Assembly (NCBI GenBank): GCA_964016885.1
Contig: OZ024742.1
Coordinates: forward strand, 119,164,001-119,228,000
Origin: Eledone cirrhosa
Lineage: Eukaryota
Direction of reading: 5' to 3'
Length of the DNA stretch: 64,000 nucleotides
Positions 6,294 through 52,570 of the stretch are shown here, one piece after another. Numbering within the stretch: the first letter of the stretch is position 1; each line of letters opens with the position of its first letter. The notes under the pieces were generated by a model. The model was not told the origin of the DNA. It worked only from the letters and a program-made list of their open reading frames with translations, and did no database searches. Both the position numbers and the translations under genes were made by a program.

Positions 6294-6481
6294 AACGAAG
6301 GAAGTGTGGTAAAGAACCAGGTGGACCATAACGCACCAGAGTACTCGATATTTAGGGTTGTAGAGTGGGTAATAGGAAACTGTTCAAGACCCCGACGACA
6401 GAGCTCAAACCATTTCGACGACTATTTCTGGACTGAAATAGCCGTCCAGAAATAGTCATCGAAACGGCTTGAGCTCTGCCA
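6294..6481. mobile_element. Asymmetric palindromic insert in (TA)n, same family as 16559-16732
   Basis: Arms 6397-6433/6444-6480, several mismatches; long arm extends to 6294. Confidence 0.75.
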
Positions 6482-6516
6482 TATATATATATATATATAT
6501 ATATATATATATATAT

Positions 6517-6615
6517 AGTAATAATAATAAATTTGAAGACCAAAATCCAAAGAGGTCTCGGTTAAAGGGTGAAAGCAGCGATTCTTTGCTTAAACTTTAA
6601 TCTGTTATTTTAATA
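6517..6615 (+). mobile_element. About 100-bp (TA)n-embedded repeat, also at 44214-44321 and 62871-62958 (opposite strand)
   Basis: AAGGGTGAAAGCA.CGATTC.TTGCTTAAACTTTAATCTG shared. Confidence 0.75.
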
Positions 6616-6630
6616 AATATATATATATAT

Positions 6631-7447
6631 ACTAGCAGTAAAGCCCGGCGTTGCTCGGGGTCGCTCAGTAGCTGTGTTAAAGTTACAATGTTAAGTTTCT
6701 TTTTTGGCTTAAAAACTGTAGTGTCTACTGTGCAGACTTGCATGTGATGTTTTTGATTAATATTCCCTCAACCAACAATATGCCTTATGAAGTTAAGAAA
6801 ACATAACGATAACCCGAATGTTATAACAAAAGAGGATGCTGGGGATAAAAACTGCACTGGTTATTTATTAACAAAGATCGAAAATGTAAACACTGCAACG
6901 CAGAGAAAAACATTAGCGTAACCAAATTATCAGTTATGTCTGTCTGCACGCCTATATCACCTCTCTGCACGACTGTCTGTCTGCACGCCTGAAATATTTG
7001 CTTGTTTTACGTAGTCTTTAAATAGACTTGTTTTCAAGTAAAAATATTGTTTTAAAATGCTTTTAAATGGAAATGAAGCAAAACGGAAGCTTAGTGTTCG
7101 AACTGATGAATTTTGCAGGTCAATATTTTGCTGGCTCGACAACTGTTCGTGTATTGTGTTAATGTCATTTTAAACGCTGAGAAAGCCAGCGTAATTTTTT
7201 ACGTAAGACGCTCAATGTAAACAGAACAAAGGGAAATAACTGATAACTTACGCTCAAAAGTCGATACATTATATTCGATTTCGTCACATAGGGTGGGTCA
7301 ATTTGAAATATTTTTTTTCCGATGTCTTCGCTAGGGCTCAATGTACAAGTATAGCAATTTCGGTGCAATTCCGTGAGAGATTCTAAGAGGAGATGTGTGC
7401 CAAAAATCGATAGACAGACAGACAACCACAGTTTTATATATATAGAT
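6631..7447 (+). mobile_element. Non-autonomous Helitron/Helentron-like element
   Basis: Begins ACTAG with GC hairpin CCCGGCGTTGCTCGGG; ends (GACA)n..TTTTATATATATAGAT, an architecture typical of Lep1/DINE-like elements. Confidence 0.55.
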
Positions 7448-7914
7448 AACGTAATATATTCCTTTCTGATACTGTACCGATTGTGTTGTTATATCTGTTT
7501 ACCTTTAAATACACACACACATATATATGTGTGGCTGTGTGTATATATATATATGAGAGCGAGAGTCAGTTTCTAACAAAGACACAATACTCTCTCATTG
7601 GAATTTACTCAACATCAACTAGGTAGATATGAATGCATGTCTGCATGCATGTGTGTGCAGGTATGGATGTTATTGTATGTGTGGATGTGGATGTTTTGAG
7701 TTCTATGTGTGCATGTGCATACGCTTTGTATCTGTACAAGTGTATATGCAGTTATTAGATGCAGAATGTTTGGAATATTTTACATATTTTTACTGTTTTG
7801 GATTGTGCTTGTAATTTCATAACTAGCTGTGTTATGTATGTATGTATGTATGTATGTATGTATGTATGTATGTATGTATGTATGTATGTATGTATGTATG
7901 TATGTATGTATGTA

Positions 7915-8918
7915 TGTGACAATTATTGACACAGTGCTGAGCCCATGGTACCATGTGACGACAAGTGCAGAGAGATCTCCAGATATAAAGCAATGCCTGT
8001 GCCGTGAAGCTTTTATAGTGAGCAAAGGCACTGCACAGAGCCAGTCCCACTCTCTTAACCAAGATGATATTTACCAAAAAGAAGAACAAGTCAACATCAT
8101 TGGACACAATCAGGGTTGCAGGTGTTATATCAGAGCTTTCCTTCTCCTAGAATTGTGCCTTGACAAAGTGTAGTGTTTGTATCAGAGTTTTCAAGTCGCT
8201 GGCTGGACTAAAAAGTCACACTCGTTCAGCGCATCGGTAGGGGTTCTCCTACATGGATATAAAGTAGTGGCCGTACTCGAAAACGAGTTGGCAGCCACTA
8301 TGTATGTATGTATGTCAGGTCACCAGTTGGTGCTACTGGTAACATGTATCCCAGTACAACCTGTCTCATGGTCGGGTCGTTGGCGACTAAACTGGCAACC
8401 CCACCAAGGTTTCTTGGTGAGGAGGGTGACTTTGGACATCCTGCAGGACTAAAAACAAAACCTGTCAAAGGGCAAAGGAGCTCTTAAGAGTCAATGGCCA
8501 TCCAAAATCACCGGGAGAGATAACTCCTTAGCCTTTGTCAAGGCAGAATTCTAGGAGAAGGAAAACTCTGATATAACACCTGCAACCCTGATGGTATCCA
8601 ATGATGTTGACTTGTTCTTCTTTTTGGTAAATATCATCTTGGTTAAGAGAGTGGGACTGGCTTTGTGCAGTGCCTTTGATCACTATAAAAGCTTCACGGC
8701 ACAGGCATTGCTTTATATCTGGAGATCTCCGCACTTGTCGTCACATGGTACCATGGGCCCAGCACTATGTGTCAATAATTGTCACAAGTGTAGTGTTTGT
8801 ACCAGAGTTTTCAAGTAGCTGGCTGGACTAAAAAGTCACACTCGTTCAGCGCATCGGTAAGGGTTCTCCTACATGGATATAAAGTAGTGGCCGTACTCGA
8901 AAACAAGTTGGCAGCCAC
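7915..8918. repeat. Compound inverted plus direct duplication between (TATG)n tracts
   Basis: 7915-8168 is the reverse complement of 8533-8786; 8166-8298 is a direct copy of 8786-8918. Confidence 0.92.
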
Positions 8919-49430: not shown

Positions 49431-50052
49431 GAAGAACAATTAATTTACATTTTTAGACTTAATTTAAGATTGAAAGAATGATACAAAGTATTTTTTGATG
49501 TGTTTGGATACGAAAATGTATTGAAAAACATAATGGTGTTTTAAGGTGTCATTTCTAAACAATAAATCTATCAAAAATGCATTTAAGCGTTTCTGAAAAT
49601 TTTACACTCTTAAATTAAATCATACGCATGTACAAAATATATATTTCAAGCAAATAACAATGTATCATTTCCCAACAATAAATTTAACCTTAATGCATTT
49701 TTAATATTTTTACTGTACATTACTACACAATATATCTATCATCTCTCGCCTCTTACTCCACCGGACAACGTTTGGCTTATGTCAAGCGCTGTGACCCAGG
49801 GTGGACCAGCACTACCGTTAGTAGGGGTCGAAACTGCCAAAGTCCATCTCAAAGACCGATGACCCTGGAGTTCTGTGCTCTTTGTTTGTATGTTTATTAA
49901 AAAAATAAATTTCAAGGTCCCCCCCCCTCTCTCTCTCTCTCTCTCTCTCTCTCTATATATATATATATATATATATATATATATATATATATATATATAT
50001 TAAACGAAATTGACATATAATATTACAAAGAACGTGATATATATATAAATGA

Positions 50053-50093
50053 CTTCTACTAGAACTGGTTCATTCGTATGAAATCATCAGGAA
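50053..50093 (-). ncRNA. Decayed hammerhead, family of 30300/35790
   Basis: TTC-CTGATGA-TTTC atac GAAT-GAAC..TA-GAAG between (TA)n tracts. Confidence 0.6.
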
Positions 50094-51829
50094 TGTCAGT
50101 ATATATATAAATAAATATATATATATATATATATATATATATATATATATATATAAATATAAGTATGTATGTATGTATGTATGTATACGTACAACTATAT
50201 ATGTATACAGACGTACAGTAGTATGTATATATATGTATACAGACGTACAGTAGTATGTATATATATACATACATGCACACATATTATATATGCACGTATC
50301 GGTCTACCGAACATTTATTATAATGCTCGGTTTGTTTGTTTGGTTGCCGGTCAAGCAGAAATTGAAAATTAGAATTGTTGCTCTGAAATAGCTATATATA
50401 TATGAATGTATATACAGTGTATTTTGCAATACACTGTATGCTCAATTAAAAGCATTTCGAAGACCTTATGCTATTATTTTAGAGTAGTGACAGACTCACT
50501 TACTTTAATTTCAGCAAACAGGGGGAGATAAAGCTGACAAGGCCTTGTTTCGCATTTATTGATGTTTATCAAAGCCAACTACTCCTCCTGTTTGCTGAAA
50601 TCATGAATGTTTGGTTCTTATAGAATTCTAGTAATAATCAGGCAGAAATTCCCGACAGATGGAATGGCTCTTCCAGCGCATCTCCCCCATCCTCCTCCGG
50701 GGAAACGCCTTCTCGGCCAGCACGTGGGATCCCATTTGCTCACAATACAGAGAGTACGGCTCTTCCGTGTTTGGACACATTGCATCTGTCATGTGGATCA
50801 TGTGATAATTTCATTATTCTGTCCCCCACCCCCCTGTACTATCAACTTATAATCTCTCTCACTAGAATAAAAGTTATTCCATTCGTTAACACGTTTTATT
50901 GTATAGTAGGCAATATGTTGTCCAATATATTCTTTATTTAAGAAGGTAGGGTGTTATTTAAAGGAAATTTACAGTGGTTGCGTAGAAGCTTCCTGGTCTC
51001 AAATATTGTCCAGCAGCAACAGAGAAGACTACATTTTCATCAGAAAATGTAGTCTTCTTCTTTGTTTCTCTCTTTTATATTTTTTAAAGTTCTTCAGTGC
51101 GGTGCTTAGTGTAACTCCAAAGAGATGGCTAGTATAAGAAACGATGTGAGGTATAGTATAAGTTACTGGTATAGGTGATGAGATAAAGAGATGGCAATGT
51201 CTTAGTTACATAATAGATATATTTACACAACTCCAATATAATAAGGATTATGGATTATTTAAATCATTTTAATTCAATAAAATAACATCTGAATAGTATT
51301 ACAGAAAAACGAGGGCGTGGACCGAACCACAGAGGCAGAATTGCTAATACTATTTATTGGTTGCAACTCCTGACAAGAAGCAACGTGAAATAAAGTATTT
51401 TGCTGAAAAACACAGCGTGCTGCCCGGTTCACCGGTTCAAGAAACGAACCCACGTAATTATGATCGTTAGTTCAACACATTAACCATTAAAAACTATAAT
51501 TTTATTCTAAATACACTTAACTCAATTTTCATATGTCTTAATTGAAAAATGGACATAATTTCATTGTAAATATTTTCATTGTAAACGAAAGATGGTACAT
51601 TGGTACTTCACGTAAAGTATAATCAAGATGATTGAAATGTTTTACAGTATTTTGAAATGAAATACTTGGTAGATGCTTGATAATATAATTATTAATATAT
51701 TTCTTTATTTCGACCTTACGACTTTCCTATCTTAGGAATTTCTGTACTAACTGATGATTGTTGATAAATATGGATAATCAAGGTCTAAGTTGTGATTAAG
51801 AAGTTTGTTACGAAACCATAAGGTTTGGA

Positions 51830-52021
51830 TTCGCGACTTGGCGGTATATAGAAGTGCCTGGAGGCGGGGTTTCCCAAGGATCACCTGGCGACGAACAATC
51901 AGGAAGGACCTGATGGTGGTCAACGTCACCTGGCAAGGTCTCGGAAAAGTTGCCGCTGATCGTGACCGTTGGCGAGTACTTACTGCTCGATGCGCCGAAC
52001 GGCGCGGAAGAATCTAAGACT
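51830..52021 (+). pseudogene. RTE C-terminal fragment
   Basis: RRGFPRITWRRTIRKDL..W..AADRDRWR. Confidence 0.75.
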
Positions 52022-52207
52022 AATATATATATATATATATATATATATATATATATATATATATATATATATATATATATATATATATATATATATAGGG
52101 TAATATACCCTATTGAGAGCTTAGCTGCACACCGGGACTGCATTCGTTAGCTTGGCTGCAACCAGAGCTTCGTTGATGCTGTACTAAATTTTGTATATAT
52201 ATATATA

Positions 52208-52570
52208 TATAAAGAAAAAAAGATGAAATCGAAAATGCAACTGGAGTCTTATTTTAAAAAATATATATATATTTATTTGGTTCCTTTACCGGTTTCGCAG
52301 TTCTTCTGCTTTTCAAAAGTAGAGTTGAGATGGAGGGTCTGTGATTTTTCTCACATCTGATGTGAGAAAAACCACAGACCCTTCATCTCAACTCTACTTT
52401 TGAAAAGTAGAAGAACTGCGAAACCGGTAAAGGAACCAAATAAATATATATATATTTTTTAAAATAAGACTCCAGTTGCATTTTCGATTTCATCTTTTTT
52501 TCTTTATACTTTCACTCGTGTAGGACACCTCGGTTATTTTTCATTTTGTAAAAAAAAACCTCACTTTCTA
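52208..52570. mobile_element. Asymmetric palindrome in (TA)n: 150-bp arms, 1-nt spacer, about 3 mismatches
   Basis: Centre T52358; contains GC-GAAAC-CG-GTA (hammerhead 3' half with palindromic stem III); plus arm extends to 52570. Confidence 0.92.

Follow-up and report, generated by a model that had tools for sequence, protein, structure and literature searches.

The window considered here is a stretch of 64,000 nucleotides from Eledone cirrhosa (assembly GCA_964016885.1, contig OZ024742.1, positions 119,164,001 to 119,228,000 of the forward strand), and all coordinates below count from its first letter. It consists of A/T-rich, microsatellite-rich DNA of animal type, with several relics of long interspersed nuclear element (LINE) reverse transcriptases (RTs). 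Scattered through it are seven short inserts, falling into families A to D, in which a sequence stands beside an inverted copy of itself at or near a hammerhead ribozyme motif. It is reasonably probable that these inserts are stumps of the ends of Penelope-like elements (PLEs), each a head-to-head pair of one short hammerhead-motif unit, and that they arose by twin priming on one RNA.

An inverted pair with outward-facing 3' ends and one longer arm was found in all seven inserts by arm alignment, so the shared design of a long arm and a short inverted arm, proposed in a preliminary description of the window, is real. Perfect inverted repeats of at least 20 nt with a spacer of at most 40 number five in the masked window and zero in each of three shuffles. 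The longer arm ends in a one-sided tail, which measures 63 nt in insert A2, 177 nt in B, 74 nt in C1, 76 nt in C2, 56 nt in D1 and 62 nt in D2. Spacers of 0–5 nt had been described for four cases, and these are B (0), A2 (1), C2 (5) and D2 (1). Six inserts lie in a (TA)n target, the exception being C2 in (AC)n, and in microsatellite flanks of this sort any target-site duplication is illegible. The preliminary description also had the short arm stop at an A/T-rich word that merges into (TA)n; an overlap of 1–4 nt between short-arm end and flank exists in six of the seven, although A1 has none and the flank of C2 is (AC)n. Long-arm ends are family-specific sequence beside a microsatellite, rather than poly(A)-primed 3' ends.

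Insert B (11560..12062) is a zero-loop palindrome centred at 11899/11900. Its arms, 11737-11899 and 11900-12062, are identical at 162 of 163 positions, and the tail occupies 11560-11736. Hammerhead cores lie at 11911 (+) and 11888 (-); both read CTGATGT and have a long stem II.

The two family-A inserts have no core. In A2 (16559..16732), the arms 16559-16613 and 16615-16669 are identical (55/55) around a single base, 16614, in the loop of stem II, and the tail covers 16670-16732. In A1 (6295..6480), the arms align at 6399-6433 and 6444-6478 with a spacer of 10, and 33 of 37 positions agree across the full short arm; the differences are CpG-type changes. The long arm runs on the minus strand from 6446 to 6295, its first base being the first base of the 12-bp stem II. 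The short arm, 6444-6480, is joined through a 3-nt microhomology (GTC) and ends 3 nt short of the cleavage site.

Family C is represented by two inverted pairs and a solo copy, for which positions are counted, as for all families below, from the first base of the hammerhead core (+1). In C1 (30137..30363), identical arms (30211-30270 and 30304-30363, 60/60) flank a spacer of 33, with cores at 30269 (-) and 30305 (+) and a tail at 30137-30210. The long arm begins at -1, and the 5' strand of stem I, GCTTC (30300-30304), is on the short arm. The 31 nt at 30269..30299 (+), missed by the preliminary description, are an exact copy of 31352..31382 (+), the putative source in non-palindromic DNA about 1.05 kb away. 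They are likely to be a templated insertion at the junction, the copying direction being inferred. A duplicate of C1 without its tail lies at 30517..30671, with the same spacer except for one change, and small end fragments occur at 30396-30493; the duplicate likely reflects slippage in (TA)n after insertion and was excluded from the count of independent insertions. C2 (35720..35927) has arms at 35720-35786 and 35792-35858, cores at 35793 (+) and 35785 (-) and a tail at 35852-35927. Again the long arm begins at -1, and here the short arm runs to -7 with GGCTTTC. The solo copy C3 (50048..50099, minus strand, core at 50090) looks like a lone short arm, because it begins at -9 and ends at the A/T word of the short arms.

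In family D, insert D1 (46299..46853) has arms at 46299-46349 and 46748-46797 and a spacer of 398. Its order is a short arm (46299-46349), a jump to 46348-46381, which is an inverted copy of 46492-46525, and then the long arm (46382-46853) with a decayed variant core at 46706. D2 (52208..52570) has arms 52208-52357 and 52359-52508 (147/150 identical) around 52358 and a tail at 52509-52570. Its cores are of the U3-A8 variant described in PMC4209133 (TTGAAAA at 52400 (+) and 52316 (-)), after which come stem II, GAAA, CCGG and TA. The upstream part of D1 (46382-46660) forms an old, imperfect hairpin of its own, whose sides are about 69% alike.

The hammerhead motifs are predicted ribozymes, and self-cleavage is a prediction from sequence as well. 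A search of the window with Rfam gave no match at the gathering score. A motif scan found seven type I hammerheads at a score of at least 9, against 0–1 in five shuffles; among these are the two in the arms of B and, for C1 as well as its duplicate, the one in the short arm, and C2 has the same core as C1. A scan for the U3-A8 variant gave three matches in the window, two of them the arms of D2, where stem I has just 3 bp. In family A, stem II, GAAA, stem III and the cleavage site are present, while the CTGANGA core is missing.

The two arms start at -11 and -11 in B, -1 and -5 in C1, -1 and -7 in C2, -41 and -42 in D2, and -324 and +43 in D1; the centre of A1 lies at the base and loop of stem II. 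The view that centres fall at or within the ribozyme thus stands for five inserts of seven (B, the long arms of C1 and C2, and stem II in A1 and A2) and fails for family D. The centre of D2, which had been placed inside stem II, is actually 41–42 nt 5' of the core at 52400, and in D1 the long arm begins 324 nt 5' of the core and the inverted arm holds no ribozyme. Among solo copies, four of six continue for 61–261 nt 5' of the core until a microsatellite follows, with shared upstream sequence demonstrated only for the pair in family E (see below), and two begin at -9 and -19.

The architecture of these inserts is already published. The known shape of a PLE insertion is a head-to-head, inverted, 5'-truncated pseudo-long terminal repeat (pLTR) with a one-sided tail (PMC3846280; PMC8557442; PMC11167929), with which the earlier statement that PLEs make inverted partial insertions agrees. 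The junction palindrome, the A/T-rich or (TA)n target and the hammerhead in the terminal repeat are common to both. In contrast to published insertions, the stumps in the window are 170–550 nt long without a reading frame and carry tails of 56–76 nt (177 nt in B) instead of 30–40. The minimal PLE hammerheads of PMC4209133 likewise include dual hammerheads on opposite strands, the U3-A8 variant, an additional base where stem II begins and a palindromic stem III; however, the dual motifs are 100–700 bp apart there, and cores are 8–85 nt apart here where both arms hold one, with longer stem III hairpins in families A and C. Non-LTR retrozymes (10.64898/2026.07.22.740005) are also short, non-coding units that carry a type I hammerhead and are related to PLE pLTRs, but they form direct tandem arrays, whereas the copies here are dispersed solo units or inverted pairs; no direct tandem hammerhead array was found among the 69 tandem rows of the window.

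The origin of the inverted ends of PLEs is called unresolved in PMC8557442, and the main text of PMC11167929 explains the tail and not the inversion. In the literature searched, with subscription papers mostly outside reach, no twin-priming account of PLE inversions was found. What is new here is product-level evidence that ties the inversion to two start sites, although such stumps may already be present in the supplements of PMC11167929 (Fig. S2) and PMC4209133. The stumps are short and occur in abundance, so that the two primer sites and the two stop points can be read from every copy. Models based on twin priming, on snap-back and on two RNAs are therefore directly testable with them.

In the proposed mechanism, all steps of which are deduced from the products, one RNA would serve as template for reverse transcription from both nicked strands of a microsatellite, with one start site distal and the other proximal. 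The distal primer would give rise to the tail-bearing arm and the proximal primer to the short arm. An early stop of the distal copy would leave arms without overlap. The ribozyme region would be duplicated by read-through past the internal primer, or by snap-back of one complementary DNA (cDNA) and annealing of its sense copy to the other. Joining of the two 3' ends would come last, through short self-complementary words that the stems and loops of the ribozyme provide. Self-cleavage is probably not needed. According to PMC11167929, both strands of the target are cut and extended by purified PLE protein, whose two start sites on the RNA delimit the tail, and ribozyme cleavage is unneeded. What is observed are two recurring 3' ends per family, differing centres, extension further 5' by one arm or the other, and junctions of blunt, microhomologous and insertion-bearing kinds.

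Twin priming on a single RNA is known from L1 (PMC2912911; PMC11702581; 10.1101/2024.08.27.596794). There too, two target-strand primers use one RNA, microhomology occurs at the internal primer and at the inversion junction, and the outcomes include deletions, duplications, jumps like that in D1 and templated inserts like that in C1. The preliminary description held that ordinary twin priming on a single template cannot duplicate sequence. This is contradicted by L1: of 1,703 inverted insertions, 66% have internal deletions and 17% duplications (10.1101/2024.08.27.596794), and duplications make up 10 of 32 in PMC11702581. The L1 duplications are ascribed to reading past the internal primer, and template switches and templated inserts are reported as well (10.1101/2024.08.27.596794); the jump in D1 and the 31-nt insert in C1 match these classes. 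Unlike L1, there is no poly(A) priming here, the internal site recurs within a family, and the duplication spans the whole short arm (37–163 nt) rather than a median of 22 bp.

The distribution of sequence between the two arms bears directly on how many primers were involved. Stem I sequence is present on the short arms of C1 and C2 and absent from their long arms, and the reverse holds in A1 and D1; a bulged base in C2 shows that the sequence is not a copy of the other stem strand. No single snap-back from the long arm could have placed on the short arms of C1 and C2 native sequence that is missing from the long arm, and snap-back from the short arm only cannot explain all cases because in A1 and D1 it is the long arm that holds the extra sequence. 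Priming from both target strands covers all of the inserts. This was one of two options in the preliminary description, and it is supported by the fixed short-arm ends, the native sequence found only on short arms and the non-overlapping junctions, whereas its further component, two templates in a dimeric hammerhead, is not.

A single primer would suffice if the cDNA of the long arm stalled at the ribozyme, folded back, copied itself and was captured at the A/T word through microhomology with the flank. Self-priming of this kind was proposed in PMC3846280. A1 fits it well, with a loop that belongs to the long arm, a 3-nt microhomology and a non-standard short-arm end, and is the best candidate for snap-back among the inserts; the centre of A2 on the loop of a 12-bp stem fits too. 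A1 and the very short arms among the loci from other contigs described below suggest that snap-back does occur. As an explanation for the inserts in general, however, it is unlikely. Besides the native sequence found only on the short arms of C1 and C2, zero-loop centres on words of 2–4 nt would offer little for priming inside a single strand. A simple stall at the encounter with the fold is disfavoured because the polymerase would reach the fold from the 3' side and leave centres there, where none are seen; the centres are at its 5' edge. Four of the six solo copies, moreover, continue well beyond the core.

Family C was followed in sequence data by aligning one contig run (X1) and three raw runs to C1 at 80% likeness, which together with scans of sequence collections took the place of a whole-genome census per family. 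The aligned sequences comprise 4,971 contigs and 4,522, 4,636 and 4,846 reads. Runs X1–X3 (share 0.96) may come from the sample behind the assembly and were not counted as independent. Directly beside the distal end stands (TA)n, in 139+66 contigs of X1 and in 449+641 reads of X4, and every one of the four runs has (TA)n at its distal loose ends. Past about -5 to -8 there is no common sequence (23 loose ends at 30300, agreement 0.46). A pile of read ends at 30302 was left unused, as it may reflect a restriction library. In the collections, patterns from family C gave four viral matches, a single identical stretch without stems I and III that was taken as chance, and the other scans with family-C patterns gave no match.

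Among the joints listed, 18 are inversion joints (15 of 32, and three from 12 of 24 rows); one further listed joint (30253 to 30216) is a direct tandem and was dropped. Detection of a joint calls for about 20 nt to either side of it, and the junctions that can be seen are restricted accordingly. In the 18, arm starts range from -5 to +86. In seven, the start of one arm falls within the tail (+69 to +86), 3' of the internal A/T word (+59), with 10 inserted letters in one of them counted as native. The two starts are within 21 nt of each other in 10 of 18, which a single primer would also give. One junction fuses both strands of stem I through 5 common nt (X1, X4 and X6), and another lies on the palindromic word of loop III with 6 common nt. 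Self-cleaved RNA as the main template was rejected, as an arm starts at the cleavage site in just one of the 18. The idea of a fixed stall at the ribozyme fold also lacks support: the centres scatter, none of the 18 listed junctions is at -1, and the solo copies pass the core as noted above.

Seven alleles common to both arms of C1 are in the minority among reads of the family, and therefore one RNA or one source is favoured. These alleles are compatible with self-copying from a single primer. They count against a model with two RNAs, held together by a dimeric hammerhead or a dimeric protein and each copied from one target strand, as does the CTGATGT core common to both arms of B. The model draws on the predicted dimer of the PLE protein, which extends both strands (PMC11167929), and on the proposal that minimal hammerheads act as dimers (PMC4209133). 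It accommodates a longer arm on either side, its two separate ends could anneal into zero-loop centres, and two transcripts of one source locus would remain compatible with the common alleles. Nevertheless, ribozyme catalysis is dispensable in vitro (PMC11167929), inspection by eye of 22 loci of the largest outside family revealed no clear chimera between subfamilies, and we regard the use of two RNAs as quite improbable.

If the palindromes were fixed ancestral units, copied whole from palindromic masters or in the manner of miniature inverted-repeat transposable elements (MITEs), identical breakpoints would be expected in all copies. The 18 listed family-C junctions are all different, and centres differ within each of the pairs C1/C2, A1/A2 and D1/D2. 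Symmetric ends with one fixed centre, as in MITEs or foldback DNA transposons, were not found in the inserts, whose ends are asymmetric and whose centres vary. One junction, 30269 to 30307, has a contig depth of 505, against 8–37 for the others, and therefore this palindromic form is common to many copies; the C1 duplicate also repeats the centre of C1. Copying of ancestral palindromes is refuted as a general rule and, as an overall explanation, very unlikely, but it stands for the high-depth junction unless the copies of that junction form one array.

Repair by the host, with fold-back synthesis and end-joining at a (TA)n break that arises after insertion, or a sequencing artefact of the fold-back type, would account for the templated insertion in the centre of C1, the jump in D1 and the lack of the C1 junction in the X1 contigs. 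Yet the family-C junction 30199/30254 is present in short reads of all three raw runs, from three other samples (26, 32 and 57 reads), the arms of A1 differ by CpG-type changes, and family-specific short-arm ends are unexpected from repair. An origin of the inserts by these routes is extremely improbable.

A generic head-to-head hammerhead pattern, limited to cores at most 30 nt apart so that the full distribution is beyond its reach, gave 90 loci in metagenome contigs of animal-like character, reduced to 74 in 27 families after merging of duplicates; a few arms of 10 nt may be chance. In 59 of the 74, the arms are alike over at least 30 nt. As in the window, each family has two recurring 3' ends, and the centres vary within families; spacers of 6–30 nt occur inside one family, which again speaks against an ancestral unit. 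Tail-bearing arms that were scored end 87–136 nt from the core, mostly at about 100–120, and the arm ends differ by 27–59 nt in 30 of 39 loci. Only five of the 74 loci are near (TA)6, and thus the short-arm end is independent of TA microhomology; this recurrence in non-TA flanks is difficult to reconcile with capture of a single-primer product at an A/T word.

In 35 scored loci, the arm that reaches further 5' by at least 2 nt is the tail-less one in 12 cases and the tail arm in 10; seven differ by 1 nt (six in favour of the tail arm) and six are ties. These counts show the existence of both classes and are taken for that only. Since either arm may reach further 5', pure fold-back of the long arm is excluded by these loci as well. 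Zero-loop palindromes make up 10 of the 74. Spacers of 6–12 nt are found in 35 of 74, against 16.7 expected if uniform; without the largest family the count is 22 of 52, and with one locus per family p is about 0.06. Among 26 long loops, three have a copy of at least 10 nt in the retrieved flanks, with the core of the element itself as the origin of two, so templated centre insertions as expected from repair are rare in the outside loci. Two loci, L054 and L089, are complex inserts with repeated partial hammerhead cores beside the centre, as if from several fold-backs or jumps in copying.

Several points weigh against twin priming on one RNA of a PLE. The head-to-head arrangement of family C was sought in reads, and such junctions do occur in three raw runs, but the centre of C1 itself has depth 0 in the X1 contigs and one read in X4, and this locus is not confirmed. 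Most joints are single contigs with a short side of 20–28 nt at 80% likeness, and only 18 inversion joints of 32 are covered. The joint table omits the far end of the ribozyme-bearing arm, and the seven junctions with an arm inside the tail could be wide fold-backs. In the outside loci, native upstream references were drawn from the same loci and are partly circular, and several arm ends are mis-called where arms hold internal duplications or deletions. Very short arms with non-standard ends (A1, L046, L073 and L026) are a better fit to snap-back from a single primer, and in the arm-sister test the own arm was best for both in 16 of 34. No reading frame with RT plus GIY-YIG adjoins any of the inserts in the window or is linked to families A–D, and the PLE origin therefore rests on motif and architecture.

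The likely reason why arm ends cluster near the ribozyme is its position: in most families about 100–135 nt separate it from the distal start, and the unit reaches its 5' limit there. Four kinds of cause are candidates for the clustering. One candidate is the unit's own 5' limit, suggested by the family-C reads. Another is short processivity: a hammerhead-poor PLE group has a median insertion of 128 bp (PMC9977147; lack of hammerheads in PMC8557442), which is about the distance from core to distal end. A third follows the example of D. virilis, where a splice junction lies at the 5' end of helix I. A stop that depends on a protein or on the fold is possible as well, and is favoured by insert B and the peak of 6–12 nt spacers.

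We tentatively raise the further idea that the inverted ends of Penelope elements come from programmed twin priming, in which the hammerhead, instead of acting as a nuclease, gives a stop-and-join signal. Both cDNAs would end at its 5' edge and anneal through its stems and palindromic loops. Five of the seven window centres fall between -11 and stem II, among them that of B, whose core and distal end are about 330 nt apart; the excess of 6–12 nt spacers in the outside loci and the microhomologies in stem I and loop III point in the same direction. We consider this proposal doubtful, if possible.

A further element, H (7918..8919), not covered by the preliminary description, has the layout rc(X)-Y-Z-X-Y in (TATG)n, and no hammerhead was found in it. 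The internal priming word ACA (8784-8786) abuts the start of the long arm, AAG (8786-8788), and a 3-nt microhomology is present at both junctions. Its geometry is that of plain twin priming on a tandem template and speaks for the proposed mechanism. A relative lies at 4576-5060 on the minus strand. At 62351-62731 (minus), there is a short frame that we take to resemble the end of a Penelope-type reverse transcriptase, without support from Pfam or Atlas.

The window holds other hammerhead-like repeats. Family E consists of two solo hammerhead inserts (11196-11520 and 16847-17007), which have their first 34 nt in common, including a hairpin with a compensatory change, and differ by about 165 nt between hairpin and core. 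Family F is decayed and hammerhead-like, with three copies in (TA)n (6518-6616, 44201-44321 and 62873-62957) whose 5' parts differ. Non-palindromic minimal hammerheads or tails also lie beside (TA)n or (CA)n at 34975-35105, 6168-6268, 7445-7542, 45016-45335 and 63074-63450.

Inverted repeats that are not bounded by (TA)n occur at 31688-31917, 38248-38340, 45719-46057, 11284-11315 and 51023-51058; the first of these has arms of 91 nt and a 48-nt centre with a small hairpin of its own. Part of a LINE, 1.6 kb long, is duplicated at 98% identity (54528-56127 and 58455-60049), both copies beginning at (TAT)n/(TTA)n. Finally, 27153-27867 is a tandem array of about 18 copies of a 36-nt unit.

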